Made by a program: the position numbers and the translations under genes
The notes under the pieces: model-generated
Databases searched by the model: none
Told to the model about the DNA's origin: nothing
What the model saw: the letters and a program-made list of their open reading frames with translations, nothing else
Assembly (NCBI GenBank): GCA_002328025.1
Contig: DCVE01000013.1
Coordinates: 42,579-106,578, forward strand
Direction of reading: 5' to 3'
DNA from: Patescibacteria group bacterium UBA2196
GTDB taxonomy: Bacteria > Patescibacteriota > Patescibacteriia > UBA2196
Length of the DNA stretch: 64,000 bases
Shown: in pieces, positions 3,608-42,751 of the stretch
How positions within the stretch are numbered: the stretch's first letter is position 1
Layout: each line of letters starts with the position of its first letter

Positions 3608-4792
3608 ATGAAAATTTGTTTAATCAATAATTTATACGATCCCTATACCAAAGGTGGGGCAGAAACAGTGGTAAAAGCTACAGCTGATGGTTTGGTTAAA
3701 AACGGACACACCGTCATGATAATTACCGCCGGTAGAAAAGATGAAACAATTGAGCAAGATATTAAAATTTACCGCATCAGGGCGTGGAATTTTTTTTCTT
3801 TTTTTGACATTGATAAAAAACCAGCTTTTCTGCGTTTAGTGTGGTGGTTTTTTAATATTTTTAATTTAAGTGTTGTTAAAAAAGTTGAAAGAATTTTACA
3901 ACAAGAACACCCAGATTTGGTGCATACGCACAACTTAAGTGGTTTGAGTTTTTTATTACCACGCAGTATTAAAAAATTAAAAATAAAACACATCCATACT
4001 TTGCATGATATTCAATTGGTTTATCCGTCTGGGCAATTAATTTATGATCAAGAAAAGAATTTTATTAACACCTTTTTTTTAAGGGTTTGGTATGAAAAAT
4101 TAGTACGTACGTTGTTTAATTCGCCACAAATAATTATTTCACCTTCGCAGTGGCTGTTAGATTTTTATCTGAAAAAGAATTTTTTTACCCACAGTCAAAA
4201 GGAATTGGTTTTAAACCCAAGCACTCAAATTTTTGATGGTCAACTTAGATTACCAAAAATTAAAGTTGATGAATTTAATTTTTTATATGTGGGCAGGGTG
4301 GAAGAATATAAAGGGATTATGTTATTAATACAAGCTTTTAAAAAAATATCCATGAGTGATAAAAAGGTTTTTTTACACATTGCTGGTACTGGACGCGAAA
4401 TGAAAAAAGCACATAGTTTGGCTGCAGAAAGCGAAAATATTTTTTTCTATGGTCAATTAGAAAGAGAACGTTTGACAGATTTGTACGGACAGGCGCAAGT
4501 TTTGATATTACCAACTTTGACCTATGAAAACGCGCCAACAGTTATTGTGGAAGCTTTTAGCCGTGGTTTGCCTGTTATTGCCTCTAATCTTGGCGGGATT
4601 ATTGAATTAGTACAAGAAGATAAGACGGGTTTTTTGTTTAAACCAGGCGACATTGAGGGTTTGGTAAAAACCATGTTGAATGTTTTAGATAATGACAACC
4701 TAAATAATTTAAGTCAGAATTGTTGGCAACGCGCTAAAAAACATAATTTAGACATGTATATAAAAAGGCTGGAAGAAATTTATTTAAGCTAA
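3608..4792 (+). CDS. glycosyltransferase family 1
   Basis: KICLINNLYDPYTKGGAE N-term; C-term E-x7-E GT1 motif (VIVEAFSRGLPVIAS). Confidence 0.75.
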   Translation: MKICLINNLYDPYTKGGAETVVKATADGLVKNGHTVMIITAGRKDETIEQDIKIYRIRAWNFFSFFDIDKKPAFLRLVWWFFNIFNLSVVKKVERILQQEHPDLVHTHNLSGLSFLLPRSIKKLKIKHIHTLHDIQLVYPSGQLIYDQEKNFINTFFLRVWYEKLVRTLFNSPQIIISPSQWLLDFYLKKNFFTHSQKELVLNPSTQIFDGQLRLPKIKVDEFNFLYVGRVEEYKGIMLLIQAFKKISMSDKKVFLHIAGTGREMKKAHSLAAESENIFFYGQLERERLTDLYGQAQVLILPTLTYENAPTVIVEAFSRGLPVIASNLGGIIELVQEDKTGFLFKPGDIEGLVKTMLNVLDNDNLNNLSQNCWQRAKKHNLDMYIKRLEEIYLS

Positions 4793-8628: not shown

Positions 8629-10713
8629 TTAATACTTAAAAATCCAGGCTTTGCCGGCCATAATTTCCCAGCTTTCCTTGGCAGTGTTTTTGCCATCAAT
8701 TACAAGTTTTTTGTAGTTAGTCCAATAATCATTAAAGATTAAATATATGTTTTGAACACCGGTAAGCTGTTTAGCAGAGCTAATAAATTTTGGTTGAATA
8801 CCTTGATAAGTAATGTCAAGATAAATTTGATAAAGCGGGGAAGATGTTGGTAGGGGATAATAAAAGAGATTGTTATAATATTTTTTGAAACCAAATTCTT
8901 GTAAAGCAGCAGCCGCAGTTGATTGATTGGCTAGAACCACATAATTATCAGTGATATTTTTTTGTTCAACAAGTTGAACGGCCTGTAGATCGGCTGTGGA
9001 TACGCCGTAGCCTTTGTTTTTTTCTAGACGGTCATAACGCGGATAAGAAAAATAAAAAATTGAGACAGCAATAAAAGATAGTGTAAAAATTAATAAGCTA
9101 ATTTTTTTTGAATCATATTTTTTATCCAGTTTAAAAACAGTGGCTAGATATAATAAAAATGGTAAAGCAAAAAAATAGGCAGCATGTACAAAGCGCATGG
9201 GGAAAATATTTTGTTCGTAACTAATTACAGCACTAAAGTTTAGGCATTTTAATAATAAGGCGTTAAATAATAAAATAAAAATAAGCCAAGGAAAAATAAA
9301 TATTTTTTTATCAGTTATTACGGAATGGGTTTTATAAAATTTCCAAAAACCAAGGCTGCTGCCCAGAATTACTAATAAAATAAAATATTTTTTTAATAAA
9401 TATGGTGCATGTAAAAAAGAGTAAAAAGATAAATAATTGTCTTGCGCCAGCCATGTTTTTAATAATTCTTGGGGCCCATTAAAGTTAAAAGTTAAGTTAA
9501 AATTGGGTAACAAAAAAGTGGCGCTCAAAAAAATTATTGGCAGGATAAAAAGAAATATAAGCACAGAAAAATTAAAGACAAGCTTTTGCTGTGGGCGTGT
9601 TTTAAGCCAACACAACCAACAGCACATTAAAGCCGGCAGGCCTGCTAATGGGTGTATGGCTGTAATGCTAAGGCCCAAAAACCACAATTGGTTAATTTTG
9701 AGGGTTGCGGAATTCAGATTTATGAAAACTAGCCAGACAAAAACAATTAAAAAAAGATTGGCTAAGTGTTGAGGTGTGGTAACAAAAAACGAAAATAAAG
9801 TTAGAAGGGCAGCAAACAAGGCCAAAATTTGGGCCATTTTTTTTTCGGCCATTAATTTTAAAAAAGCAAAATAAGTAACCAACGGTATTAACAATGCACC
9901 CAAAATCGGTGCTAAAAATTTGTCAATAATAGTCAAATTTATGTATGAAATTTTGGCGATAAAAACCGTTAAACCATATTGGCCAATGTAATAGGGTGTT
10001 TGGGGTAAAACAAAACCTTGCGTAAAAATTATTTTTTCGGCAACGCGATGAATAAAAGGGTCAAAGCCGTAGCCAATTTGGTAGATTATAACTGCGACGG
10101 AGGCACTTAAAAAAATTTGTAAGACCACCAGGATGATATTTTTGGAAGAGGGGAATTTAATAATTTCAAATAGCACAAGAAAAGTGGCCAAAAAATAGAG
10201 CAAAAAGAACGGTGTTGGTAAAACTGTCCACGGTGAAACAAGCGCTTCAGAACTACTGTTTATGATTAAAAAGTAAAAGAGTGCAATAAAGAGACCTGAA
10301 TAAATTAGGTTAAGAAAAAAAATAATTTTTTTACTATCTTTTTTATTATTTTCTTCACTACTAATGGATGCAAACGGTTGAGTTGGTGTGGTTTGATTAG
10401 CCGGCAAAAAAATAGTCGTCACCAGCGGCATTAATAACACCAAAAAAATTGAAAAATTAGTTAGCCCCAGAGTATAATAAAGAATTACACTGGACAAGAT
10501 TATCTCAGCTATTAAAAAGATAAAACCTAAAAAAAATCGAAAATATTTTTTTTGACTAAAAAAAATTCGTTGACCAAAATAAAAGCTAAAAAAATAAAAA
10601 TAAATTAAAGTCAGAAGTCCGCCCACAAACGGATTTTTGAATGCCAGCATATTTAACACCAAGACTAAAATTATGAGCAGAGGTTGGATTAAAAATTTGA
10701 TTTTTTGTGACAT
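8629..10713 (-). CDS. large polytopic membrane protein (putative GT-C-like glycosyltransferase/hypothetical)
   Basis: 694 aa, many TM helices, C-terminal soluble domain. Confidence 0.55.
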   Translation of the reverse strand: MSQKIKFLIQPLLIILVLVLNMLAFKNPFVGGLLTLIYFYFFSFYFGQRIFFSQKKYFRFFLGFIFLIAEIILSSVILYYTLGLTNFSIFLVLLMPLVTTIFLPANQTTPTQPFASISSEENNKKDSKKIIFFLNLIYSGLFIALFYFLIINSSSEALVSPWTVLPTPFFLLYFLATFLVLFEIIKFPSSKNIILVVLQIFLSASVAVIIYQIGYGFDPFIHRVAEKIIFTQGFVLPQTPYYIGQYGLTVFIAKISYINLTIIDKFLAPILGALLIPLVTYFAFLKLMAEKKMAQILALFAALLTLFSFFVTTPQHLANLFLIVFVWLVFINLNSATLKINQLWFLGLSITAIHPLAGLPALMCCWLCWLKTRPQQKLVFNFSVLIFLFILPIIFLSATFLLPNFNLTFNFNGPQELLKTWLAQDNYLSFYSFLHAPYLLKKYFILLVILGSSLGFWKFYKTHSVITDKKIFIFPWLIFILLFNALLLKCLNFSAVISYEQNIFPMRFVHAAYFFALPFLLYLATVFKLDKKYDSKKISLLIFTLSFIAVSIFYFSYPRYDRLEKNKGYGVSTADLQAVQLVEQKNITDNYVVLANQSTAAAALQEFGFKKYYNNLFYYPLPTSSPLYQIYLDITYQGIQPKFISSAKQLTGVQNIYLIFNDYWTNYKKLVIDGKNTAKESWEIMAGKAWIFKY

Positions 10714-15233: not shown

Positions 15234-16523
15234 ATGGATTATCCGCAACTACACGATGAGGTTAAACAGTCCAATTCAAAAAAAAGGTGGTTGTTTCGTT
15301 TTATAATTGTTATTTTGGTAGGCGTTATAATTTTTATGGCTTTTGGTTTTGGTCGAACGATTGGTAAACGCACCATTACGACACAGGTGCCTGAAACTTC
15401 AGCCAATACCCAGTTTGGCCAAGTGTTGGACAAAGGACAAATACCAGATTATCTAAAAAAAGATGTCAATTTTGATATTTTTTGGCAGGTGTGGAGTAAA
15501 ATTCAAAATGAATACATTGAGCGACCAGTGCCAGAAACAAAACTTTTCTATGGTGCCATGGTGGGTTTGGTGGCGGCACTGGGAGATCCGTACTCTATGT
15601 TTTTAGAGCCGCAAACTTCAAAGGAATTTCAAGCAGAGTTGCAAGGACACTTCGAAGGTATTGGCGCTGAAATTGCTGTAAAAAGTAATCAACTGACAGT
15701 TGTTTCGCCATTGCCAGAATCGCCAGCTGAAAAAGCTGGACTTAAGGCCGGTGATAAGATCGTTTTAATTGACGATTTAACCACGACTGGTCTTGACGCC
15801 AGTCAGGCAGTGCAAAAAATTCGTGGTCCCAAAGGAACTCAGGTGGTTTTGACCATTGCGCGTGGAGATACTTTGGAACAGAAAAAAATTACCATTATTC
15901 GTGATACAATTAAGATTGTTTCTGCATCGTGGAAAATGGAAGAAAAAAATAGTAAAAAAATTGCTGTCATTAAATTATCAAATTTTAATGAAGACACCGA
16001 TAGTCGTCTAATTACGGCAATTAATGAAATTTTAACCAAAAACCCGCAGGGTATTGTATTAGATTTACGTGGCAACCCCGGTGGTTATATAGATCAAGCC
16101 ATTAGCGTTGGTTCGCATTGGGTGAGTGCTGGAAAAACCATTGTGCTGGAAAAGTTTTTTGATAATAAACAAACACAGCATTTGGCCAATGGACGGGCTG
16201 AATTGAAAAATTATAAAACCGTAGTTTTAATTAACAAAGGTTCAGCTTCAGCTTCGGAAATTGTGGCAGGTGCTCTAAAGGACAATCAACTGGCTACCAT
16301 TGTGGGCGAACAAAGTTTTGGTAAGGGTTCAGTCCAAAATTTGGAAGATTTACCAGATGGTTCGGCGATTAAATTAACTGTTGCGCGATGGCTAACGCCC
16401 AACGGTACAACAATTGATAAACAGGGTATTACGCCTGATGTGGTGGTTGAATTAACTGAACAAGATTTTAATGACAATAAAGATCCGCAGTTGGAAAAGG
16501 CGTTGGATTTATTAACACAATAA
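15234..16523 (+). CDS. ctp: carboxyl-terminal processing protease (S41 family, Ctp)
   Basis: PDZ domain plus S41 signature GSASASEIVAGAL; N-terminal TM anchor. Confidence 0.85.
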   Translation: MDYPQLHDEVKQSNSKKRWLFRFIIVILVGVIIFMAFGFGRTIGKRTITTQVPETSANTQFGQVLDKGQIPDYLKKDVNFDIFWQVWSKIQNEYIERPVPETKLFYGAMVGLVAALGDPYSMFLEPQTSKEFQAELQGHFEGIGAEIAVKSNQLTVVSPLPESPAEKAGLKAGDKIVLIDDLTTTGLDASQAVQKIRGPKGTQVVLTIARGDTLEQKKITIIRDTIKIVSASWKMEEKNSKKIAVIKLSNFNEDTDSRLITAINEILTKNPQGIVLDLRGNPGGYIDQAISVGSHWVSAGKTIVLEKFFDNKQTQHLANGRAELKNYKTVVLINKGSASASEIVAGALKDNQLATIVGEQSFGKGSVQNLEDLPDGSAIKLTVARWLTPNGTTIDKQGITPDVVVELTEQDFNDNKDPQLEKALDLLTQ

Positions 16524-17037: not shown

Positions 17038-18678
17038 ATGCAGAAGGTTAAAAAATATATTTTTGTGGTGGGCGGTGTGATGTCGTCGGTTGGCAAGGGC
17101 GTGGCAGCCGCTTCGTTGGCTAAAATTTTACAGTCCAAGGGTTATAGTATTGCCAGCATAAAATGTGATATGTATGTAAATGTGGATGCGGGTACCATTC
17201 GGCCGGCAGAGCATGGCGAGGTTTTTGTGGGCGAAGATGGAGTGGAAGCCGACCAGGATTTGGGTAATTATGAAAGGTTTACAAACCAAACTTGCACGCG
17301 TGATAATTATATCACCACGGGCCAGGTTTATCAGGAAGTTATTCGGCGGGAAAGAAATTTGGAATACGATGGCGAGGATGTCGAGGTGGTGCCGGATATT
17401 CCGAATGAAATAATTAGGCGTATTGAGGTTTGTCAAAGAAAAAACAAAGCCGAGGTGACAGTGGTGGAAATTGGTGGCACAGTTGGCGAATATCAAGTTT
17501 TGTTGTTTTTAGAAGCAGCCAGAATGATGAAAGTAAAAAATCCGGCAGATGTGTTTTTTGTCTTGGTTAGTTATTTACCAACCCCAACGATTTTGGGTGA
17601 ACAAAAATCAAAACCAACACAGTATGCCATTCGGACGCTTAATTCAGCTGGTATTATGCCGGATTTTATTTTATGTCGAGCTGATCGAGCGGTTAAAGAA
17701 AATATCAAAAACACCATCAGCACCGTGTGTAGTTTGCCGCACGAACGTATTATTTCTGCGCCAGATGTTTATTCAATTTATGATGTGCCAATTAATTTTG
17801 AAAAAGAAAATTTGGGTCAGGTGATGTTGCAGACCATGGGTTTAAAAGCCAGAACACAAAAACTTGAAGATTGGAAAAAATTAGCTTCTAAAATAAAAAA
17901 AATAAATAAAAAAGTTACTATTGGCATTGTGGGTAAATATTTTAATTTTAAGTCGTGTCGTGATACTTACATTTCTGTTATTGAGGCCATCAACCACGCA
18001 TGTTGGTTTAATAATGTTAAACCAGAAATTTTATGGTTGGATTCAGAAGAATATGAAAAAAATGATAAAAAATTAAAAGAACTAAAAAATGTTGATGGTA
18101 TTATTGTGCCGGGAGGTTTTGGTCAGCGTGGTACAGAAGGTATGCTTTTAGCAGCTCGTTATGCCAGAGAAAATAAAATTCCATATTTTGGTTTGTGTTT
18201 GGGTATGCAAATTATGACCATTGAATTTTCACGGAATGTTTTAAAATTAAAAAAAGCTAATTCAACTGAACTGGATCTAAATACAACCAACCCAGTTATT
18301 GCAACGATGGAAGAGCAAAAGAAAAATATTGCGGAAAAAAATTATGGTGGCACCATGCGTTTGGGTTCTTATAAAGCCAACCTAGAAATAGATTCCTTAA
18401 GTTATAAGGCTTATGGGGAAAAAATAATTTCTGAACGTCATCGCCATCGGTATGAATTTAATAATTATTATCAACAAAGACTAGAAGCAGCTGGTTTAAA
18501 AGTAACTGGTTTCAATCGTGAGCGGGGATTGGTAGAAATTGTGGAGGTAAAAAATCATCCGTGGATGGTGGGTGTACAGTTTCATCCAGAGTTTAAATCG
18601 CGACCGCTTAATCCGCACCCGTTGTTTAAAGATTTTGTCAAAGCTAGTTTAAAGAGAAAAAATAAAATAAAAAAATAG
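17038..18678 (+). CDS. pyrG: CTP synthase
   Basis: YIFVVGGVMSSVGKG N-term; C-terminal glutamine amidotransferase domain (GLCLGMQ). Confidence 0.9.
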   Translation: MQKVKKYIFVVGGVMSSVGKGVAAASLAKILQSKGYSIASIKCDMYVNVDAGTIRPAEHGEVFVGEDGVEADQDLGNYERFTNQTCTRDNYITTGQVYQEVIRRERNLEYDGEDVEVVPDIPNEIIRRIEVCQRKNKAEVTVVEIGGTVGEYQVLLFLEAARMMKVKNPADVFFVLVSYLPTPTILGEQKSKPTQYAIRTLNSAGIMPDFILCRADRAVKENIKNTISTVCSLPHERIISAPDVYSIYDVPINFEKENLGQVMLQTMGLKARTQKLEDWKKLASKIKKINKKVTIGIVGKYFNFKSCRDTYISVIEAINHACWFNNVKPEILWLDSEEYEKNDKKLKELKNVDGIIVPGGFGQRGTEGMLLAARYARENKIPYFGLCLGMQIMTIEFSRNVLKLKKANSTELDLNTTNPVIATMEEQKKNIAEKNYGGTMRLGSYKANLEIDSLSYKAYGEKIISERHRHRYEFNNYYQQRLEAAGLKVTGFNRERGLVEIVEVKNHPWMVGVQFHPEFKSRPLNPHPLFKDFVKASLKRKNKIKK

Positions 18679-18686
18679 AAAAACAA

Positions 18687-18712
18687 AAGACGGCAAAAAA
18701 ATGAGCCGTCTT
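18687..18712. terminator. bidirectional intrinsic terminator between pyrG (+) and rpmA (-)
   Basis: AAGACGGC-loop-GCCGTCTT 8-bp stem flanked by A-run and T-run. Confidence 0.5.
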
Positions 18713-18734
18713 TTGAAATTTGAACTTTATTTTA

Positions 18735-19010
18735 TTATACTAATATACTAACAAATTTTTTCCACTTAAGCTTGCCAACAAAGGTTGTTTTTTTGCGGCG
18801 ATAAAAATGAACCTTACCAGGTTTAATGGCAAACAAGGTATCGTCTTTACCTTTCATGATGTTTTTACCGGGGTTAAACTTGGTGCCACGTTGGCGAATA
18901 ATAATGGCGCCAGCTTTGGCAATTTCGCCTTCATACAACTTAACACCCAAACGCTTAGAGATTGAATCGCGACCCAACTTTGTTGAGCCCTGTGCTTTTC
19001 TATGTGCCAT
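18735..19010 (-). CDS. rpmA: 50S ribosomal protein L27
   Basis: [16 protein letters not shown]...; stands alone without rplU upstream. Confidence 0.9.
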
Positions 19011-19186
19011 ATAAAATAGAAGCGTTAAAATGCAGTTAAGTGCACTAACGCGGAATTAATATTTGTTTTATTCTAACAAATTATAACTTAAGTGTCAAAT
19101 TGTGGAAACAAAGATTATTGTGTATAATGGAGAATGATAACAGTTGGTTTTAAAATTCAAAATTAAGAATTAAAAATTTTAATTGT

Positions 19187-19600
19187 ATGTATAGTTCAAT
19201 AGTTTTAGAGCATTTTAAAAATCCACATAATCAAGGCGTCATTCTTGATGCTGATGCTGTGGGTCAAGTTGGTAATCCAGTGTGCGGTGATATTATGAAG
19301 TTGTATTTAAAATTTAGCGAAGCTGATAAAGATAAGTCCCTTGAAGAAAGGGTGATTGAAGATATAAAGTTTGAAACACTTGGTTGCGGCGCGGCTATTG
19401 CCTCCACTTCCATGCTGACAGATTTGGCCAAAGGCAAAACTGTGGCCGAGGCTTTAAAAATTACTAAACAAAACGTGGCAGATGCTTTGGGCGGTTTGCC
19501 GGCCGTTAAGATTCATTGTTCAATTTTAGCTACAGAGGCTTTAGAAAAAGCAGTAAAAAATTATTCCGCCAGCCTTGAGCGACCGAGCCCCGCAGTATAG
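19187..19600 (+). CDS. iscU: Fe-S cluster assembly scaffold, NifU/IscU N-domain type
   Basis: PVCGDIMKLY...LGCGAAIAS...IHCSILA conserved Cys ligands; last ~10 codons run into a GC-rich repeat element. Confidence 0.8.
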   Translation: MYSSIVLEHFKNPHNQGVILDADAVGQVGNPVCGDIMKLYLKFSEADKDKSLEERVIEDIKFETLGCGAAIASTSMLTDLAKGKTVAEALKITKQNVADALGGLPAVKIHCSILATEALEKAVKNYSASLERPSPAV

Positions 19601-19710
19601 TGGGACGAGGGAGCCGAAAGGTCTTAAATTTAAATTTATAAATCAATCCCTTAAATGAGCCATGGGATCCCTCGGCTCATAGCGACCAAAAAGGCCGCTC
19701 GGGATAAATT
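19580..19710 (+). repeat. GC-rich repeat element region (includes GATCCCTCG...CTCGGGAT copy at 19666-19705)
   Basis: local GC spike; shares terminal motifs with the in-frame insertion in iscS. Confidence 0.4.
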
Positions 19711-19723
19711 ACAAAAAAACATT

Positions 19724-20161
19724 ATGAAAAATCCTATCATACGCACAATTTATTTGTATCTTTTTGCCCTGGTTGGTTTAGCCATGTTAGTCATTGGGCT
19801 TTCTATGATTATTAATTTGGGTTTAAAGACCTGGATTTTTACCCAAGCTGATAGAGTGGATAATTATATGAGCCAGCCAATGCCTCTTTATTTAAACAAA
19901 GAAATGGCTACGGTTGAAAATTTGCAAGCTTGTCAAGATAAATGTTCATTAACAAACGAACAAAAAACTCAAATTGCTAATTGGTTAGCTGATTATGAAA
20001 ATTGGAAAAATACAGAAAAGAATCGTGATCCTAATTTTTATCAAAAACAAAATCGCCAAAGACAAGCCGCTACAGCTATTTCTTTAATTTTGGTTGGTTT
20101 GCCACTTTGGTTATTTCATTGGAGCGTTATAAAAAAAGATAATAAAGAAAAAGAGGTTTAA
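19724..20161 (+). CDS. hypothetical membrane protein (2 TM)
   Basis: ORF track, start moved to internal MKNPII after the repeat element. Confidence 0.5.
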   Translation: MKNPIIRTIYLYLFALVGLAMLVIGLSMIINLGLKTWIFTQADRVDNYMSQPMPLYLNKEMATVENLQACQDKCSLTNEQKTQIANWLADYENWKNTEKNRDPNFYQKQNRQRQAATAISLILVGLPLWLFHWSVIKKDNKEKEV

Positions 20162-20182
20162 TATAATTAAAAATTTAAAAAT

Positions 20183-20413
20183 ATGAATATACAAGAAAAA
20201 ATACAACAAGAGTTAGATTTAATTCGTCCGCATTTACAAATGGATGGGGGAGATGTGGAGCTGGCGGAATTTGACGAAGCTACGGGTGTGTTGAAATTGC
20301 GTTTGCAAGGGCATTGCGCAGGTTGTCCCATGAGTCAAACAACTTTGCAAGAAGGCATTGGCCGGGCCGTGAAAGAGAAAGTTTCGGAAGTTAAAGAAAT
20401 TGTGGCGGTGTAA
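20183..20413 (+). CDS. Nfu/NifU C-terminal-domain Fe-S cluster carrier
   Basis: CAGCPMSQTTL CxxC motif; 76 aa. Confidence 0.7.
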   Translation: MNIQEKIQQELDLIRPHLQMDGGDVELAEFDEATGVLKLRLQGHCAGCPMSQTTLQEGIGRAVKEKVSEVKEIVAV

Positions 20414-20422
20414 AATAATTTT

Positions 20423-21649
20423 ATGCAAAATATATATTTTGATAATGCAGCCACGACGCCAGTAAATAAAAATGTTTTGGAAGTCATGTTGCCATATTTT
20501 TGTGAAATTTATGGCAACGCTTCATCCTTACACTCATTTGGTCAGGAAGCTTTAAAAGCTGTAGATGAAGCGCGCGCTAAAGTGGCAAATTTTTTAGGCT
20601 GTGAGACCAATGAAATAATTTTTACTTCGGGCGCCACAGAAGCGGATAATTTAGCCATTATGGGCGTGGTTTTTGCTAATAATTATTTAGAAAAAAAAAT
20701 ACACATTATCACCACCGAGTTTGAACATCCAGCAGTTTTGGAAACTTGTAAGTATTTGGAAAAACAGGGTGTAGAGGTGAGTTATGTAAAACCAGGTAGT
20801 GATGGGGTTATAAAAGTGGAAGATATTGAAAAAGAAATCAAAGATAATACAATTTTAATTTCGGTGATGTATGTTAATAATGAAATTGGCACCATTCAGC
20901 CAATTAAAGAAATAGGACAATTGGTGAAAAAAATAAATTCAGAGCGTATTACACGAGATCCCTCGACTTCGTCTTCGCTTCGCTCAGACTCTGCTCGGGA
21001 TGACACACTGCGTCAAATTTATTTTCACACCGATGCGGTGCAAGCAGCTTTGTATTGTGAGATGAATGTCGAAAATTTGGGTGTGGATTTGATGGCAATT
21101 TCTGGTCATAAAATTTATGGACCAAAAGGCATTGGTGTTTTGTATATAAAAAAAGGCACGCGCTTGCAAAAAATTCAACACGGTGGTCATCATGAATTTA
21201 ATAAACGCGCTGGTACTTTAAACACGCCTTTAATGGTTGGAATGGGAAAAGCTGTTGAGTTAATTCAAACTAGAGATTTAAATAAAATTAAATTTTTGCG
21301 GGATTATTTGTGGCAAGAGTTGCAAAAAAACATTGTTGATGTTAGTTTAAATGGTTCTTGGGAAGATAGAACGCCCACTAATCTAAATGTTTCTGTGCAA
21401 GGTGTGGAAGGCGAAGCTTTGTTGTTGGGTTTGGATATGGCGGGAATTGCGATTTCCACTGGCTCGGCCTGTTCTTCTGGTTCTCTTGAACCGTCACATG
21501 TATTAATGTCCATTGGTTTGTCGCACGAGGCGGCGCACGGCAGTTTAAGAATAACTTTGGGTGAAGAAAATACAAAAGAAGAGATTGATTATTTTGTGCA
21601 ACAACTTAAGCAGTTGGCGGAAAAGTTTAGACAGATGGCGCCCAAATAA
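20423..21649 (+). CDS. iscS: cysteine desulfurase (IscS/NifS class V aminotransferase)
   Basis: SGHKIYGPKGIG PLP-lysine region; SSGSLEPSHVL active-site Cys loop; ~15-codon GC-rich in-frame insertion. Confidence 0.9.
   Translation: MQNIYFDNAATTPVNKNVLEVMLPYFCEIYGNASSLHSFGQEALKAVDEARAKVANFLGCETNEIIFTSGATEADNLAIMGVVFANNYLEKKIHIITTEFEHPAVLETCKYLEKQGVEVSYVKPGSDGVIKVEDIEKEIKDNTILISVMYVNNEIGTIQPIKEIGQLVKKINSERITRDPSTSSSLRSDSARDDTLRQIYFHTDAVQAALYCEMNVENLGVDLMAISGHKIYGPKGIGVLYIKKGTRLQKIQHGGHHEFNKRAGTLNTPLMVGMGKAVELIQTRDLNKIKFLRDYLWQELQKNIVDVSLNGSWEDRTPTNLNVSVQGVEGEALLLGLDMAGIAISTGSACSSGSLEPSHVLMSIGLSHEAAHGSLRITLGEENTKEEIDYFVQQLKQLAEKFRQMAPK
20957..21001 (+). repeat. in-frame GC-rich insertion element in iscS (GATCCCTCG...CTTCGCTTCGCTCAG...CTCGGGAT)
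   Basis: inserted relative to the conserved IscS core between EIG..KKI and RQIYFHTDA; GC-rich; terminal imperfect inverted repeat. Confidence 0.5.
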
Positions 21650-21728
21650 ATTTTAAAAATGTTTTTCATATAAAACACGTTTTTTTCAAAACAATAGTGA
21701 GTGTGTCATTTACAGGAGGAACCGGATT

Positions 21729-22736
21729 ATGGATATTCTAATAAGTGCACAACAGATTATAAGGCAGGCTAATTTTGTATTACTTCAGAAGGAGTGGCAA
21801 GAAAAGCTTGGCAGAGAATTTGGTCATGTTTTTTTAGCATATGGAACACAAACAGATGTAGAGTATTTTTGTGTTCATGAGGATTGGTATAAATTTAGAG
21901 ACAAAGGACTTTTTGTTTTGGTTGGGGGAAAAATAACTTCTGGCCAAAATGGAAGAGAGGGTCTCTTGTTGGTCACCGGGCTGGAACCAAAGGAACTTTT
22001 TTTTAATACCAGTCTTTTAAAAAAGGTTTTGCATCAGTGTAAAAGGTATGCCGAAAAAATTAATGCTAAATCGATTGGTTTAGCCGGAATGTTACCTAGT
22101 TTTGTTCAAAGAAAAATACAAAAAAGAGAATTAGATTTGCAAAATGATTTTGGGTCTTTGTTTGTCAAGGGCCTAATGGGGAGCACGTGGTTGGTTTGTA
22201 ATTCCGTTTTAGAGTTGGTAGAACCAAGAACAAAAGTAGCCGTTGTCGGGGTTGGATACCTTGGCGAGTTTGTCGCGGATGTGTTAGAAAGAAGAAATTA
22301 TAAAGTAACAAGATGGGACACAAAAAACACTACTAATAATCTAGATGATCTTAGACAGTGTGAACTTATTATAGGGCTTACACCAAATGGAGATGATTTA
22401 TTTGGGTATGCCGAGTTGATGAAGGGCTCTAATGTTAGGAAAGTTTTATTTGACACTCACCCAGTCCCGTCACAACGCACGGTGGATGTTTTAAACCTGG
22501 CTAATATCAAGGTCTTTAAAGCCATAGCTCGTTCTAATGGGGTTGAAACTAGGCCGGCACTTCCAAATTTTGACAAGAAAGACATGCCTGGTTGTATGGT
22601 GGATGGGTATGTGCGTTCGTCAAAAATCGGTGATAATACGGGTGGCGTGAGTTATGACTGTTTTGATCAAGCCGCAAGTCAACTTGGAATTCAAACTCCG
22701 TTACTTGAGCTCACTCCCGAGCTCGAGTTAGTCTAG
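21729..22736 (+). CDS. hypothetical protein with Rossmann NAD(P)-binding motif
   Basis: VAVVGVGYLGEFV...KVTRWD GxGxxG signature; GC-richer codon usage than neighbours. Confidence 0.5.
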   Translation: MDILISAQQIIRQANFVLLQKEWQEKLGREFGHVFLAYGTQTDVEYFCVHEDWYKFRDKGLFVLVGGKITSGQNGREGLLLVTGLEPKELFFNTSLLKKVLHQCKRYAEKINAKSIGLAGMLPSFVQRKIQKRELDLQNDFGSLFVKGLMGSTWLVCNSVLELVEPRTKVAVVGVGYLGEFVADVLERRNYKVTRWDTKNTTNNLDDLRQCELIIGLTPNGDDLFGYAELMKGSNVRKVLFDTHPVPSQRTVDVLNLANIKVFKAIARSNGVETRPALPNFDKKDMPGCMVDGYVRSSKIGDNTGGVSYDCFDQAASQLGIQTPLLELTPELELV

Positions 22737-25191: not shown

Positions 25192-26193
25192 ATGTTTAGA
25201 CAATCATTGCTTAAAAAAATTAAAAAAAGTGGTTTAATCGGTCGTGGCTGCAATAATTTTTTGGTGGCTGAAAAATGGGAAATGGTAAAGCGTGTAAAAG
25301 GCGCGGAAAAGTTCGTGGTGTGTAATATTTCCGAATCAGAGCCGGGTATATTTAAAGATAAATATATTTTGGAAAAATGGCCACAATTGGTGTTGGATGG
25401 TATTAATTTAGCCATGCATGAAATTAAAGCTAAAAAAGGTTTTGTCTATCTAAATCCACTGTATTATGGTGAATTTCAAGCCAGTCTGGAACAAATAATT
25501 TTAAAAAATAATTATAGTATCGAATTATTTGAGAAGCCCTTGCACGACTATGTGGGTGGAGAAGAAACAGCGGTTTTAAACTCTATGCAAGGTTTGAGAG
25601 TTGAGCCGCGCTTAAAACCACCCTATCCAACCAAAGTTGGTTTTTATGGTGCGCCGACACTAATTCACAACTGTGAAACTTTTTATGCCGTGTCTCTAAC
25701 AAATTCTGGTGTTTATAAAAATACTCGTTTTTATTGTTTGTCTGGTGTTGATAGAGCAAATGATGTAAAAGAATTAGCAACTGATTTAACGGTTCGTGCG
25801 GTTTTACAAGAATTTGATCATACACCAAGCGTTGATTTTTTTTATCAAGTTGGCGGAGGAGCGGCTGGTTTTTGTTATAATTACAAGCAATTGAATCGTA
25901 AATTTGAAGGCTCTCCAGCCATTATTATTTATAAAAACAATGATTCTGAACAGGCAATTGTGATGAAATGGTTGGATTTTTTTCGTAAAGAATCTTGTGG
26001 TCAGTGTGTGCCATGTCGGGAGGGAACTTTTCGTTTGCGTAATTTGATGTATACATATTATCAAGGTGGAAAACTTGATAAAAAAGCTTTTGATGATTTA
26101 ATTTTGTCATTACAAAAAACTAGCTTATGTGCTTTGGGAAGAACTGCTACAAATGCCGTGGTTTCGTATTTTAAAAACGTAAAAGGAATATGA
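25192..26193 (+). CDS. NuoF-like flavoprotein subunit (hydrogenase diaphorase-type, short)
   Basis: GGEETAVLNSMQG (NuoF GEETALL motif); CGQCVPCREG N3 4Fe-4S motif; FMN motif degenerate (GRGCNNF); translationally coupled to hydA. Confidence 0.75.
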   Translation: MFRQSLLKKIKKSGLIGRGCNNFLVAEKWEMVKRVKGAEKFVVCNISESEPGIFKDKYILEKWPQLVLDGINLAMHEIKAKKGFVYLNPLYYGEFQASLEQIILKNNYSIELFEKPLHDYVGGEETAVLNSMQGLRVEPRLKPPYPTKVGFYGAPTLIHNCETFYAVSLTNSGVYKNTRFYCLSGVDRANDVKELATDLTVRAVLQEFDHTPSVDFFYQVGGGAAGFCYNYKQLNRKFEGSPAIIIYKNNDSEQAIVMKWLDFFRKESCGQCVPCREGTFRLRNLMYTYYQGGKLDKKAFDDLILSLQKTSLCALGRTATNAVVSYFKNVKGI

Positions 26194-28139
26194 AAAAAAT
26201 AAAATTTTATATTAATAATAAAGAATATACTGCTTTGGAAAATGATTCTGTTTTGGACGTGGCTTTACGAGAAGGACTAAATGTTCCGCATTTGTGTAAA
26301 CATCCGGATTTGGCCATTAAAGGTAATTGTCGTTTGTGTTTGGTACAAGTGGAAAATAAAGGTGTGGTGACAGCCTGTTCGACTGTGGTGGAAAAAGGGA
26401 TGCAAATTTTTTTAGAAACCGAAGAAGTTAAAAGCTTACGCAAGACAAATTTGGAGCTTATTTTTTCTGAACATCAGGAAAAGTGTGCCACTTGTTTGTA
26501 CCAAGATAATTGTCAAATATTAAAATATGCAGCTGAATTTGGTATAAAAATTTCGCGTTTTGAAGACAGAAAAAAACATTATTCAACCTGGCAGTTTGGT
26601 GATTCCATACGGTTTGATAGTTCTAAATGTATTGATTGTCGAAATTGTGTGGAAGTTTGCGATAAACAAGCCTGTAGTTTTTATGAAATTGCAGAAAGAG
26701 GAGTTGAAACAATCATTAAACCCAAAGGAGAAGTTGGTGGAATTACCTCCCCCCACCCCCTCCTTCTAAAGGAGGGGAGCTTAGATCTGTTAAAAAATGA
26801 TGTAGATAAATTTGATTGTACTTATTGTGGGCAATGTGTGACACATTGTCCGGTGGGAGCAATTAGCGGGGTATCGCATTGGGAGGAAGTTGAAAAATTA
26901 TTAAAAGATCGAGCTGGAAAAATTTTGGTTGTTGAAATTGCTCCGTCTATTCGTGTCTCTATTGGTGAAGAGTTTAATGAACCATACGGTAAGATTGTGA
27001 CTGGGCAATTAGCGGCTTCTATGAAAGCTTTGGGGTTTGATTATGCTTTTGATGTCAATTTGGGTGCCGATTTTACCACTTATGAGGAAGCACAAGAAGT
27101 GGTGGAAATGGTTTTGAATAATAAATCGCGTCCATTATTTACTTCGTGTTGTCCGGCGTGGGTAAAATTTGTTGAATTTTATTATCCGGAATTTATTGCC
27201 CATTTGACTAGTGCTAATTCACCGCACATGTGTTCTGGACCAATTATTAAAACCTATTTTGCCGATTATTTAAAAAAAGATCCACGCGATATTGTGGTGG
27301 TTTCAATTATGCCGTGTACCTCAAAAAAACATGAAATTAATTTAGAGACGCACACCATTGATTTGGGTTGGTGTTTGGAAAGATTGGATTTACCTAACAT
27401 TAAAAATATTTGTCCGGATAGAAAACAACTACAGGGCGTAAAAATAAAAGCCGTGGATTATGTTTTAACCACGCGTGAATACGCCCATCTTTTGCATAAA
27501 CACAAGATTGATTTATCAAAACTTAAAGCAGAAAAATTAGACAAACCTTTGGGCGTCTATTCTGGTGCCGGAGCAATTTATGGCGCGACCGGTGGAGTTA
27601 TGGAATCAGCTCTTAGAAGCGCGGATTATTTTTTCCGAGTCTGGGATGAAACCGATTCATTAAAATCAGTGGTCAAAGGAGAAAATTATAAATTGAAAAA
27701 GAAAAGATTTTCTAAATTATTACAAAGTCGCATTGAGTTTAAAGAAGTGCGTGGTCAAAATGGAATTAAAGAAGCCAGGGTAAAGGTGGGGGGGCGTAAG
27801 TTAAATGTTGCGGTCGTTAATGGTTTGGGTAATGCTAAAAAAATTTTGGATGACCTTAAAGCCGGTAAGGTAAAATATGATTATGTGGAGGTTATGGCCT
27901 GCCCGGGTGGTTGTATTGGTGGTGGTGGTCAGCCCATTCCGACTAATTCAAAAATTAGAGCCCAACGCGCCAACGCAGTTTATGAAATTGATAAAAACTT
28001 AGCCATTCGTACAGCTCACGAAAATCCAAGTCTTTTGGAGGTGTATAATAAATATTTTAAGGGTGATAAAGAAATAATTGAAAAAGTTTTACACAGTAAA
28101 TTTAAGGTTAAACAAAAAACAGGATATACGATAGTATAA
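26190..28139 (+). CDS. hydA: [FeFe] hydrogenase catalytic subunit with N-terminal 2Fe-2S and 4Fe-4S ferredoxin domains
   Basis: H-cluster motifs TSCCPAW (L1), MPCTSKKHE (L2), EVMACPGGCIGGGGQP (L3); CIDCRNCVEVC and CTYCGQCVTHCP ferredoxin motifs. Confidence 0.85.
   Translation: MKKIKFYINNKEYTALENDSVLDVALREGLNVPHLCKHPDLAIKGNCRLCLVQVENKGVVTACSTVVEKGMQIFLETEEVKSLRKTNLELIFSEHQEKCATCLYQDNCQILKYAAEFGIKISRFEDRKKHYSTWQFGDSIRFDSSKCIDCRNCVEVCDKQACSFYEIAERGVETIIKPKGEVGGITSPHPLLLKEGSLDLLKNDVDKFDCTYCGQCVTHCPVGAISGVSHWEEVEKLLKDRAGKILVVEIAPSIRVSIGEEFNEPYGKIVTGQLAASMKALGFDYAFDVNLGADFTTYEEAQEVVEMVLNNKSRPLFTSCCPAWVKFVEFYYPEFIAHLTSANSPHMCSGPIIKTYFADYLKKDPRDIVVVSIMPCTSKKHEINLETHTIDLGWCLERLDLPNIKNICPDRKQLQGVKIKAVDYVLTTREYAHLLHKHKIDLSKLKAEKLDKPLGVYSGAGAIYGATGGVMESALRSADYFFRVWDETDSLKSVVKGENYKLKKKRFSKLLQSRIEFKEVRGQNGIKEARVKVGGRKLNVAVVNGLGNAKKILDDLKAGKVKYDYVEVMACPGGCIGGGGQPIPTNSKIRAQRANAVYEIDKNLAIRTAHENPSLLEVYNKYFKGDKEIIEKVLHSKFKVKQKTGYTIV
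26757..26777 (+). repeat. perfect 9-bp palindrome CCCCTCCTT-CTA-AAGGAGGGG inside hydA (in-frame)
   Basis: seen directly; same element as at 41611-41631 in alaS. Confidence 0.6.
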
Positions 28140-40765: not shown

Positions 40766-42751
40766 ATGACTTCCAAAGAATTGCGTCAAAGATATATTGA
40801 GTTTTTTAAAAAAAATGGGCATGTAGAAATTCCCAGTGCTTCTTTGATTCCGGAAAATGACCCTTCTATTCTTTTTACCACTGCTGGTATGAGTCCACTC
40901 GTGCCATTTCTTTTAGGTGAAAAACATCCGGCTGGCAATAAATTAGTTAATTCGCAAAAATGTATTAGAACAGGTGACATTGATGGTGTTGGTGATGCTT
41001 GCCACCATACTTTTTTTGAAATGTTGGGTCATTGGAGTTTGAATGATTATTTTAAAACTGAAGCCATTGAATTGACTTATAAATTTATTACTGAAGATTT
41101 AAAAATAGATCAAAAATATCTGGCCGTTTCTGTTTTTGTTGGAGATAATGATGCGCCGTTTGATGCCGAAAGTTATCAAAAATGGCAAGAGCTGGGTTTT
41201 TCTGAAAAAAGAATTACTAAATTACCCAAAAAAGATAATTGGTGGGAATTGCCTGGAAATTCTGGGCCGTGTGGGCCAGATACAGAAATGTTTTATTGGA
41301 CTGGGGACAAAAATTCTGTGCCAGAAGTTTTTGATCCGCAAAATAAAAATTGGGTAGAAATTGGCAATGATGTTTTGATGCAATATGAAAAAATTGGCGA
41401 AAACAAATATCAACCTGCCAAACAAAAAAATATTGATAATGGCACAGGTTTGGAAAGACTTTTAGCAGTTATGAACGGTCTTGATGATAATTATCAAACA
41501 GATTTATTTTTACCAATAATTGAGGAAATTGAAAAGTTAAGCGGGAAAAAATATACCCCTCTGTCCGCAGTAGCGGACTCCTCCCCTTATCAAGGGGAGG
41601 ATAAGAACATCCCCTCCTTTCTAAGGAGGGGCCTCACGACGGAGTCGGAGGGGGAGATAAAATCAATGCGTATTATCGCCGACCATTTGCGCGCGGCCAC
41701 TTTTATCATGGCTGATCCGGCTGGTATTGCGCCTTCAAACACAGATCAAGGCTATGTGGTTAGAAAGTTAATTCGTCGAGCTATTCGTCATGGTAAATTA
41801 ATTGGCATTGATCAGAATTTTTGTGTTGAAATTGCTGAAGTAGTAATTAATAATATGCAGGATATTTATGCAGAACTAGAAACTAATAAAAAATTTGTTT
41901 TAGATAATATAAATTTAGAAGAAGAAAAATTTAGAAAAACATTGCAAGACGGAGAAAAGAAATTAAATAAAATTTTTGATAAGGTTGAAATATTTGAAGA
42001 AATGGAGGAAGGTGACAAACTAGAAACTTATAATTTTGCTGATTACAGTGGTTTAGGTAAAGACTTTTTTGTCTTATCTTCCGAATATGGTTATCCTTTG
42101 GAATTAAGTTTAGAAGCTTTGGATGAAAAAAAAGAGAGATTAGGTGATGGTAAAATACCAAAAGAGGAAAAAGAAAAAATACAACGGAAATTTGATGATT
42201 TTAAAGAAAAAGTGATTAAAAGTTATAATATTGAAATGCAAAAACATCAAGATCTTTCGCGCACTGCCAGCGCTGGCAAATTTAAAGGTGGCTTAGCCAA
42301 TCAAAGCGAAATGGCTGTTAAATACCATACTGTTTCGCATTTATTATTGCAAGCTTTAAGAATGGTCTTGGGCGAACATGTTTTTCAAAAAGGTTCTAAC
42401 ATTACCGACGAAAGATTGCGTTCAGATTTTTCTCATGGGGGAAAAATGACACCAGAACAAATTGTCCAAGTTGAAAACATAGTTAATGAACAAATACAAA
42501 AAAATTTAACAGTCGAATGTAATGAAATGAGTTTAGATGAAGCTAAAAATCAAGGCGCCATGGGAGTTTTTGCCAATAAATATGGTGAGCGAGTTAAGGT
42601 ATACACAGTTGGCGATGACCATTTTTGTTTTTCTAAAGAAATTTGTGGCGGACCACATGTAAAGAATACTGGCGAATTAGGCCATTTAAAAATAATAAAA
42701 GAGGAGGCCAGTTCAGCGGGCGTCAGAAGAATTAAAGCAATTTTAGAATAA
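40766..42751 (+). CDS. alaS: alanine--tRNA ligase (short form: catalytic plus editing domains, no C-Ala domain)
   Basis: class II motifs (FTTAGM, HHTFFEMLGHWS); editing-domain HxxxH / CGGPHV; only 661 aa; ~100-nt GC-rich palindromic insertion. Confidence 0.85.
   Translation: MTSKELRQRYIEFFKKNGHVEIPSASLIPENDPSILFTTAGMSPLVPFLLGEKHPAGNKLVNSQKCIRTGDIDGVGDACHHTFFEMLGHWSLNDYFKTEAIELTYKFITEDLKIDQKYLAVSVFVGDNDAPFDAESYQKWQELGFSEKRITKLPKKDNWWELPGNSGPCGPDTEMFYWTGDKNSVPEVFDPQNKNWVEIGNDVLMQYEKIGENKYQPAKQKNIDNGTGLERLLAVMNGLDDNYQTDLFLPIIEEIEKLSGKKYTPLSAVADSSPYQGEDKNIPSFLRRGLTTESEGEIKSMRIIADHLRAATFIMADPAGIAPSNTDQGYVVRKLIRRAIRHGKLIGIDQNFCVEIAEVVINNMQDIYAELETNKKFVLDNINLEEEKFRKTLQDGEKKLNKIFDKVEIFEEMEEGDKLETYNFADYSGLGKDFFVLSSEYGYPLELSLEALDEKKERLGDGKIPKEEKEKIQRKFDDFKEKVIKSYNIEMQKHQDLSRTASAGKFKGGLANQSEMAVKYHTVSHLLLQALRMVLGEHVFQKGSNITDERLRSDFSHGGKMTPEQIVQVENIVNEQIQKNLTVECNEMSLDEAKNQGAMGVFANKYGERVKVYTVGDDHFCFSKEICGGPHVKNTGELGHLKIIKEEASSAGVRRIKAILE
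41560..41660 (+). repeat. GC-rich palindromic insertion in alaS (hairpins at 41564-41577, 41580-41600, 41611-41631)
   Basis: CCTCCCCTT-ATC-AAGGGGAGG and CCCCTCCTT-TCT-AAGGAGGGG perfect 9-bp stems; in-frame (…SAVADSSPYQGEDKNIPSFLRRGLTTESEGEIKS…). Confidence 0.55.

Follow-up and report, generated by a model that had tools for sequence, protein, structure and literature searches.

How does the gene for an iron-sulphur (Fe-S) scaffold protein come to end in a GC-rich repeat when the DNA around it is AT-rich? The question is raised by the IscU gene on a 64 kb stretch of contig DCVE01000013.1 (the window; coordinates given without a genome name are window positions), whose nearest genomes are Kuenenbacteria-like metagenome-assembled genomes of the Patescibacteria, or candidate phyla radiation (CPR). 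We propose that 19572-19708 holds two decayed hairpin repeats in opposite orientation, copies A and B, belonging to the class of the Ssn-related motifs (SRM) and NTS, and that the pair is best read as the ends of an ssn cassette that lacks its gene, a reading to which we assign a probability of roughly 0.78. The comparison that bears most directly on this reading is with the related genome L087, where the 3' site of the IscU gene carries an inverted copy of the repeat, a 92-aa GIY-YIG gene (279 nt) and a direct copy; the linker between copies A and B in the window occupies the position of that GIY-YIG (ssn) gene. A third copy, C, lies downstream within the IscS gene. It was not until 2025 that the Ssn nucleases and the hairpin repeats that accompany them were described, with mobility suspected, and the element treated here is a variant subtype of this Ssn-related kind of repeat. 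The features of the locus are as follows.

19187-19600, plus strand: IscU/NifU_N scaffold gene, 137 aa, from the open reading frame (ORF) list; PF01592 on an identical protein
19565-19600, plus strand: last 12 codons of the IscU gene, the element-derived tail SASLERPSPAV and the stop codon
19572-19621 (core 19577-19614), minus strand: copy A, a degenerate, inverted hairpin repeat
19622-19662: AT-rich linker between copies A and B, 41 nt, 22% GC
19663-19708 (core 19666-19705), plus strand: copy B, intergenic, in the 5' leader of the DUF5671 gene
19724-20161, plus strand: DUF5671 membrane-protein gene, likeliest start ATG 19724 (MKNPIIR...)
20183-20413: NifU_C gene, between the DUF5671 gene and the IscS gene
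20423-21649, plus strand: IscS/NifS cysteine desulfurase gene, 408 aa, PF00266, host of copy C
20952-21005, plus strand: copy C, a full-length element, in frame inside IscS
minus strand, 5' neighbour of the IscU gene in the local gene order: L27 gene

The first-pass annotation of this DNA had placed a GC-rich repeat at the 3' end of the IscU gene and in the spacer behind it, and base composition bears this out for the gene: the tail (19565-19600) has 66.7% GC versus 38.9% for the remainder of the IscU gene, in a window that is AT-rich overall (35.4% GC). For the spacer the claim holds in part, as its 123 nt are not uniformly GC-rich (41.5% overall) and consist of two GC-rich blocks, those of copy A (66% over 19572-19621) and copy B (56.5% over 19663-19708), around the 22%-GC linker. 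The element copy announced for the spacer is indeed present as GATCCCTCG-N23-CTCGGGAT, the core of copy B at 19666-19705, and the one announced for the IscS gene is copy C, in which the same pair of motifs recurs at 20957-21001 with a 28-nt interior; the pair has these two matches in the window versus none in 100 dinucleotide-preserving shuffles. The earlier count of two copies in the Fe-S locus was too low, however, as the degenerate inverted copy A had been missed and the locus holds three copies within 1.45 kb. Copy A reads GCTCCCTCG-N18-CTCGGTCG on the minus strand, where a one-mismatch GATCCCTCG at 19606-19614 forms part of it and the GAGCGACCGAGCC motif its outer arm, and it overlaps the IscU tail such that the IscU stop codon TAG (19598-19600) lies within its loop. 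Pattern, mismatch and generic terminus scans, the last of which also recovered copy C, detected no further copies elsewhere in the 64-kb window; a generic repeat finder run on the window returned AT-rich chance families only and did not recover the element. As 8 contigs assembled independently of one another encode the identical 137-aa IscU, the element sequence is no assembly artefact. Five independent Logan assemblies (L082-L086) break 36 nt 5' of the IscU start (~19151), the breaks falling in the AT-rich low-complexity stretch 19100-19186.

Is the tail foreign to IscU? The protein ends in ...KNYSASLERPSPAV*, and its C-terminus was compared with those of the ~30 closest homologues (76-88% identity), as the first-pass annotation had suggested. 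Close homologues carry short K/N-rich tails just after ...ATEALEKA(I/V)xxY/L (KNNLQLKK, KKIN, REKSI or LRN) and none of the ~30 has SASLERPSPAV, so that conservation of the tail in orthologues, the outcome named beforehand as contradicting a replacement, did not occur in this set. In L088, the sister of the window on the IscS tree, IscU ends EEYKNNLQLKK*, the IscU-DUF5671 spacer measures 20 nt, and the sites of copies A, B and C are all empty. Another homologue (P0016) has the odd tail EGCHPEPR, and from the peptide CHPEPR an intact inverted element copy was predicted (CAT CCC GAG being the complement of CTCGGGATG). The DNA of L087 bore this prediction out, since its IscU gene enters an intact inverted copy, TGTCATCCCGAGCCCCGATAGCAATCGAGGGCGAGGGATCTCG, and stops at an internal TAG (...SLEGCHPEPR*). 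Copy A can be aligned with this intact copy as well as with a degenerate one that L172 has at the same site. On the basis that homologue tails differ, that the sites are empty in L088 and that IscU of L087 runs into an intact copy, the proposal that the element replaced the native C-terminus and 3' region of the gene is supported, and the IscU tail and most of the spacer are element-derived. Chance similarity, or ordinary lineage-specific divergence of a weakly constrained C-terminus and spacer, would be in keeping with the variability of IscU tails among relatives and with the degeneracy of copy A. Such an account is nevertheless at odds with the shuffling result, with the recurrence of the 9+8-nt ends at three sites in several genomes, and with a copy that was predicted from a peptide and then confirmed, and we attach next to no weight to it.

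The alleles of relatives at this site relate copies A and B to a cassette. The two copies have the same layout as in L087 but enclose only 41-51 nt of AT-rich DNA. L172 likewise has an A+B pair without a gene, with only ~15 nt between the two, and L001 has copy B alone, its orthologue showing identical ends and 17/23 identical interior bases within a remaining spacer that is unrelated. The IscU-DUF5671 site thus exists in four allele states, namely empty (L088), cassette with gene (L087), gene-less doublet (window and L172) and single end (L001). We propose that an SRM-ssn-SRM cassette was inserted just after the last conserved IscU helix and that the nuclease gene has since been lost; alternatively, the A/B pair may have been a gene-less doublet from the start. 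The copies are inferred to have spread through the action of Ssn on hairpins of single-stranded DNA. As things stand IscU runs into copy A, has gained an 11-residue S/A/P/R tail and stops at the TAG in the hairpin loop, copy B lies in the leader of the DUF5671 gene, and IscS has some 18-20 additional residues. Other differences among these loci are that L087 has no DUF5671 gene, its position being taken by the ssn cassette (10170-10448), and that an extra 107-aa ORF lies between the NifU_C and IscS genes of this genome. The IscU-DUF5671 spacer of L001 (3060-3105) and L171 (10430-10470) contains a run of TTCGCGTA(A/G)(A/T)T units, an unrelated short repeat and not copy A.

An inverted doublet without a gene also resembles a REPIN, and a different kind of mobile repeat has to be considered: a repetitive extragenic palindrome (REP) or REPIN moved by a Y1 transposase (the REP-associated tyrosine transposase, RAYT), or a conventional miniature inverted-repeat transposable element (MITE), bounded by terminal inverted repeats and moved by a DDE transposase. 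A Y1_Tnp gene is indeed present in the related genome L171. Yet the ends match SRM and not the GT[AG]G heads of REP, what is encoded between copies or next to them is a GIY-YIG protein and not a Y1 or DDE transposase, no target-site duplication was seen, and none of the copies examined has a Y1 gene as its neighbour, all of which renders this explanation very improbable. In the minimum-energy fold each copy pairs with itself, and A-B pairing of the REPIN kind was not found there. The likeness to REP/REPIN-RAYT and IS200/IS605 systems, which the authors of the Ssn study drew themselves (PMC11893778), consists in repeats that form hairpins in single-stranded DNA (ssDNA) and are recognised by a small nuclease encoded between or beside them, and it ends at the enzyme, which is of the GIY-YIG family here rather than an HUH/Y1 transposase. 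Moreover, the oriented flank of one end is on the other strand from that of its partner, and the same-strand cutting mechanism of IS200/IS605 would therefore not be simply transferable. The Y1_Tnp (IS200/RAYT-like) gene of L171 occupies 16031-16507, ~5.6 kb downstream of the Fe-S locus, and is not adjacent to any SRM copy.

The link between repeat and GIY-YIG gene extends well beyond L087. The family of the L087 gene gives 2779 matches, and some members read through an element, acquiring tails such as ...ILRIGLSASAQDDNKL. Among 80 metagenome loci encoding homologues (L090-L169), elements with these ends occur at 1.12/kb within 200 nt of the gene versus 0.09/kb elsewhere, a 12-fold difference, the upstream copy being mostly inverted and the downstream copy mostly direct. 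GTCAT is ~5-fold enriched upstream of the gene (in 56/76 loci) and ATGAC ~5-fold downstream (in 54/73), and the layout of L087 is found again in another CPR genome (L174). The L087 protein detects the Neisseria gonorrhoeae ssnA orthologue by tblastn (E 8e-8), a gene that is itself flanked by canonical NTS repeats in the locus read (L170). A profile of the CPR GIY-YIG protein aligned to this orthologue with an hhalign probability of 99.7% (E 1.7e-25), and judged by sequence the CPR protein is homologous to SsnA. NCBIfam holds no specific family for it, and the PDB offered only UPF0213 relatives. A GIY-YIG gene of L017 was considered as a member of the same subfamily and rejected, being of the UPF0213 type and without flanking elements.

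How close is the element to the repeats described with SsnA? In Neisseria, the NTS (CGTCATTCCCGCGMAVGCGGGAATCYRG) and the more general SRM flank ssnA (Chenal et al. 2025, Nat Commun, PMC11893778), whose product is a 94-aa single-domain GIY-YIG nuclease that binds ssDNA at the hairpin and cleaves it close to the NTS (PMC11893778). Cleavage affects the NTS (GTCAT-bearing) strand only and needs sequence 5' of the cleavage site, and the GTCAT flank is called crucial to the interaction (PMC11893778). Taken as a family across genomes, the elements studied here resemble SRM/NTS in being short inverted repeats that can form a hairpin and whose flank is oriented and non-palindromic (5'-(C/T)GTCAT-stem-loop-stem-ATC...), in occurring in several copies and, in relatives, in bracketing a single-domain GIY-YIG gene of ~95 aa; the window copies have the SRM ends TGTCATCC...GGATCTCG, and canonical SRMs co-occur in related CPR genomes. 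They differ in that TCG...CTCG and a long, variable interior (18-28 nt) come after a 5-bp terminal stem, and in their host, a Patescibacteria/CPR lineage, a group unmentioned in the Ssn study (PMC11893778). They also differ in that one copy lies in frame in an essential gene and another rewrites a C-terminus, when NTS are inside genes in only 2% of cases (PMC11893778). The published SRM search pattern, HGTCWYN(0-2)YYVSBRHN(0-5)WNVSBRGN(0-2)RNCYNB (PMC11893778), is matched in L002, L087, L171 and the Neisseria locus. Within 250 nt of the gene, however, a pattern-matching SRM occurs in just 1/80 homologue loci, as against the TCG type in 11/80 and generic ends in 17/80, for which reason we class the element as a variant subtype of SRM. 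Nothing relevant came out of literature searches on GIY-YIG-linked MITEs, on palindromic elements in Patescibacteria or on strings of the GTCATCC... type. A single SRM of L002 (ATTCCCGCTTTCGCGGGAATGAC, 2684-2711) is identical over 24 nt to an N. gonorrhoeae NTS (L170 454-477), a striking case of repeat conservation across phyla.

The family is defined by its ends. In intergenic and coding copies alike, and across genomes, (CGA)GATCCCTCG...CTCGGGAT(GACA) is conserved and the interior varies, with element lengths of 40-54 nt in this analysis; further copies in relatives include short forms. At least four copies fall within 16 kb of L087, and at three unrelated loci the interior is near-identical, TCGTCCCGAAGCGTCGGGACTC. 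The consistent unit is CGAGATCCC...GGGATGACA, and the unit boundaries A|CGAGATCC...GGATGACA| agree in five L087 copies. The 5-bp terminal stem occurs as ATCCC/GGGAT, ATTCC/GGAAT, ATCTC/GAGAT and ATTTC/GAAAT, and the two variable stem positions are complementary in 81/96 distinct elements versus 35.7 expected from the marginals; the terminal stem covaries. Short intact copies (GAGATCCCTCG-N5-14-CTCGGGATGAC) are also present in 12 viral or proviral IMG/VR contigs (L178-L189), mostly of 60-70% GC, where a rough estimate gives ~0.2 expected. No ssn homologue was detected in the fetched stretches of these 12 copy-bearing contigs, and a phage vector for the element is unsupported.

Measured against this family, the window copies look worn. 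Copies B and C have the terminal stem ATCCC...GGGAT, which is degenerate in copy A. Copy A, whose SRM convention (5'-GTCAT...) runs along the plus strand, has a flank reading GAGCGACCGAG, its GTCAT decayed to GAGCGAC; copy B (GGGATAAA) is without the GAC(A) flank, and its own flank, TTTATCCCGAG, has likewise lost GTCAT. Copy C, CGAGATCCCTCG-N28-CTCGGGATGACA, is the sole window copy with both conserved flanks (TGTCATCCCGAG...CGAGGGATCTCG on the minus strand, also written TGTCATCCCGAG...GGGATCTCG). Folded as ssDNA, the three give z-scores against shuffles of +0.78 (copy A), -0.86 (copy B) and +0.26 (copy C), compared with -2.9 and -2.5 for intact L087 copies and -4.4 for a Neisseria NTS. Because copies A and B are without the GTCAT flank and all three fold weakly, we infer that the window copies are decaying relics, by now inert passengers whose only consequence would be their additions to proteins. 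One could argue instead that they are still functional Ssn targets marking the Fe-S operon, in the way proposed for NTS clusters around key genes of Neisseria, and that incoming or replicating ssDNA is cut there such that recombination or transformation is modulated. For this speak the concentration of three copies in 1.45 kb with none other in 64 kb, the intact flanks of copy C, the ends of copy B that are identical in the window and L001 despite the unrelated remainder of the spacer, and the NTS clusters and the effect on transformation documented for Neisseria (PMC11893778). The lost GTCAT flanks of copies A and B and ssDNA folds no better than those of shuffles nonetheless argue for decay. 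Furthermore, the window has no ssn gene, the sister genome L088 does without all three copies, and copies A and B are probably one insertion, so that the clustering comes down to two events. We regard retained function as unlikely.

The hairpins might alternatively act as RNA, in cis on the transcript of the Fe-S operon, where between iscU and the genes downstream they could terminate or attenuate transcription, direct processing or stabilise the mRNA. The 166-nt region does fold modestly better than shuffles as RNA (z of -3.1 on the plus and -2.7 on the minus strand), and the copy A hairpin (RNA z -2.85) is followed by a U-rich stretch. Against this, an Rfam search of 19400-21200 relaxed to E 10 gave no match at the element, and gathering thresholds yielded RNase P and a single tRNA as the sole matches in the whole window; the plus strand of 18600-21800 showed no intrinsic terminator, for which a GC-rich stem-loop with a T-run behind it would be expected on the coding strand. 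The same motif, moreover, lies inside the IscS coding region and is tied to GIY-YIG genes in unrelated contexts and phyla, and the closest relative, L088, manages with its short spacer and no hairpin. Since the element is absent from L088 and present inside a coding region, we dropped an RNA structure as the principal explanation and consider it improbable.

Copy C is a case of in-frame insertion into a conserved protein without its disruption. IscS of the window matches solved cysteine desulfurases with an E of 4.7e-99, yet its residues 174-197 have no counterpart in them, the flanking blocks being contiguous in the structures. In the window, L001, L002 and L087, IscS has about 16-20 extra residues precisely at the element versus other CPR IscS proteins, and the window insertion comes to about 16-24 aa when all solved IscS proteins are included in the comparison; the window copy encodes ...TRDPSTSSSLRSDSARDDT..., whereas the 388-aa IscS of L088, without the insertion, reads ...AERNNKIYLHTD... 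at the insertion point. These four lineages all have copy C, in each case in frame, and L088, L171, L173 and L172 do not. The element lengths are 45, 42 and 39 nt; the nucleotide ends of the IscS copies are conserved, the interiors differ, and the lengths are multiples of three. The copy would be accommodated in a surface loop. In L087 it differs by 2 nt from two intergenic copies of the same genome, which suggests a recent insertion or gene conversion. The IscS gene of L002 (Kuenenbacteria) has a second in-frame insertion, TPSFSSDKSGLKAGDTAAV, at another position (4250-4312), made up of three short perfect hairpins (CCGAGC/GCTCGG, TCCGGC/GCCGGA and ACAGC/GCTGT).

In this respect the element recalls the Rickettsia palindromic elements (RPE; Ogata et al. 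2000), reportedly selfish repeats of ~100-150 bp that lie in frame in protein-coding genes. Common to both are GC-biased palindromic repeats in an AT-rich reduced genome, in-frame insertion into housekeeping proteins and a patchy distribution among close relatives, and copy C shows the RPE-type arrangement of an in-frame element between blocks that align contiguously to solved structures. The elements studied here differ in measuring 40-55 nt and in being tied to a GIY-YIG gene. Rickettsia is also among the species with >300 SRM elements (PMC11893778), and a link between RPE and SRM is possible.

How do these observations weigh on the interpretation of copies A and B as cassette ends? An IscS tree of 10 taxa resolves ((L088, window), L001), ((L173, L171), L002), L172 and L087, and the A/B site is as patchy among these relatives as copy C. 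Several points count against the cassette interpretation. First, presence and absence on this tree need at least three gains or at least three losses, and the tree does not decide the direction; several gains or several losses at the same positions therefore mean turnover either way. Second, tblastn detected no GIY-YIG/ssn homologue in the 64-kb window, unlike in the SRM/NTS loci described, and the association of element and ssn is therefore shown only in relatives. Third, no target-site duplication is visible at element copies and no clean insertion junction is definable, and the filled and empty IscS alleles also differ by ~10 unexplained bases 3' of GACA. Fourth, the published SRM pattern has 0 matches in the window, copy C and short TCG-type forms failing it; what takes the window copies outside it is a stem that goes on as TCG...CTCG, together with their long interior. 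Fifth, the GTCAT ends face ssnA in the one gonococcal locus read (L170) and point away from the gene in L087, L174 and most metagenome loci. Finally, mobility of the Ssn cassette is itself only hypothesised in the literature, where NTS-ssnA-NTS is likened to the architecture of an insertion sequence (IS) (PMC11893778).

Beyond the identity of copies A and B stands the broader proposal that a GIY-YIG ssDNA nuclease drives an IS-like class of active mobile elements, the SRM-ssn-SRM cassettes. We hold this to be possible and on balance doubtful. If true, the hairpin ends of mobile cassettes would persist as solo copies or gene-less doublets, and CPR cassettes would land in frame in essential genes, their interiors being homogenised within a genome. 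The four-state allele series at the IscU-DUF5671 site could serve as a natural system in which to test Ssn cassette mobility. Taken alone, the window would offer three relic repeats that have left a harmless tail on IscU and a loop on IscS. Beyond what the first-pass annotation had seen, the element is an Ssn-related hairpin repeat and the spacer holds two opposite-orientation copies that resemble cassette ends, the nuclease gene missing here. To the published system the locus adds a CPR host, insertions in Fe-S assembly genes that stay in frame or rewrite a C-terminus, and a subtype that escapes the published pattern, and it bears on how often such elements rewrite protein ends or enter essential proteins in reduced, AT-rich genomes.

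The repeats also set a trap for annotation, as ORFs are extended across them. Automatic gene calls start the DUF5671 gene at ATG 19655 (168 aa), with copy B 'translated' as MSHGIPRLIATKKAARDKLQKNI (19655-19723), while the orthologues in L001, L002, L088, L171, L172 and L173 have 145-146 aa and start MKNPIIR; the 168-aa call is likely an artefact caused by the repeat. Canonical SRMs at L171 10926-11008 and L172 3573-3600 similarly lie at the 5' ends of called genes and give apparent N-terminal extensions, the SRM-extended calls being a NifU_C of 110 aa vs ~76 and a HIT protein of 154 aa vs ~137.

Two other GC-rich hairpin insertions were noted within window genes. A 109-nt block of three hairpins (GTCCGC-AGTA-GCGGAC, CTCCCC-TTATCAA-GGGGAG and CCCCTCC-TTTCTAA-GGAGGGG) lies at 41556-41664, in frame in an ORF resembling alanyl-tRNA synthetase (AlaRS; 40766-42751, ...TPLSAVADSSPYQGEDKNIPSFLRRGLTTESEGEI...), and belongs to a sequence family that differs from the SRM copies. 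A hairpin of the CCCCTCC...GGAGGGG type at 26745-26785, in frame in a 649-aa Fe-hydrogenase/NuoG-like ORF (26190-28139, ...GGITSPHPLLLKEGSLDLL...), looks like a member of the same family as the AlaRS insertion.

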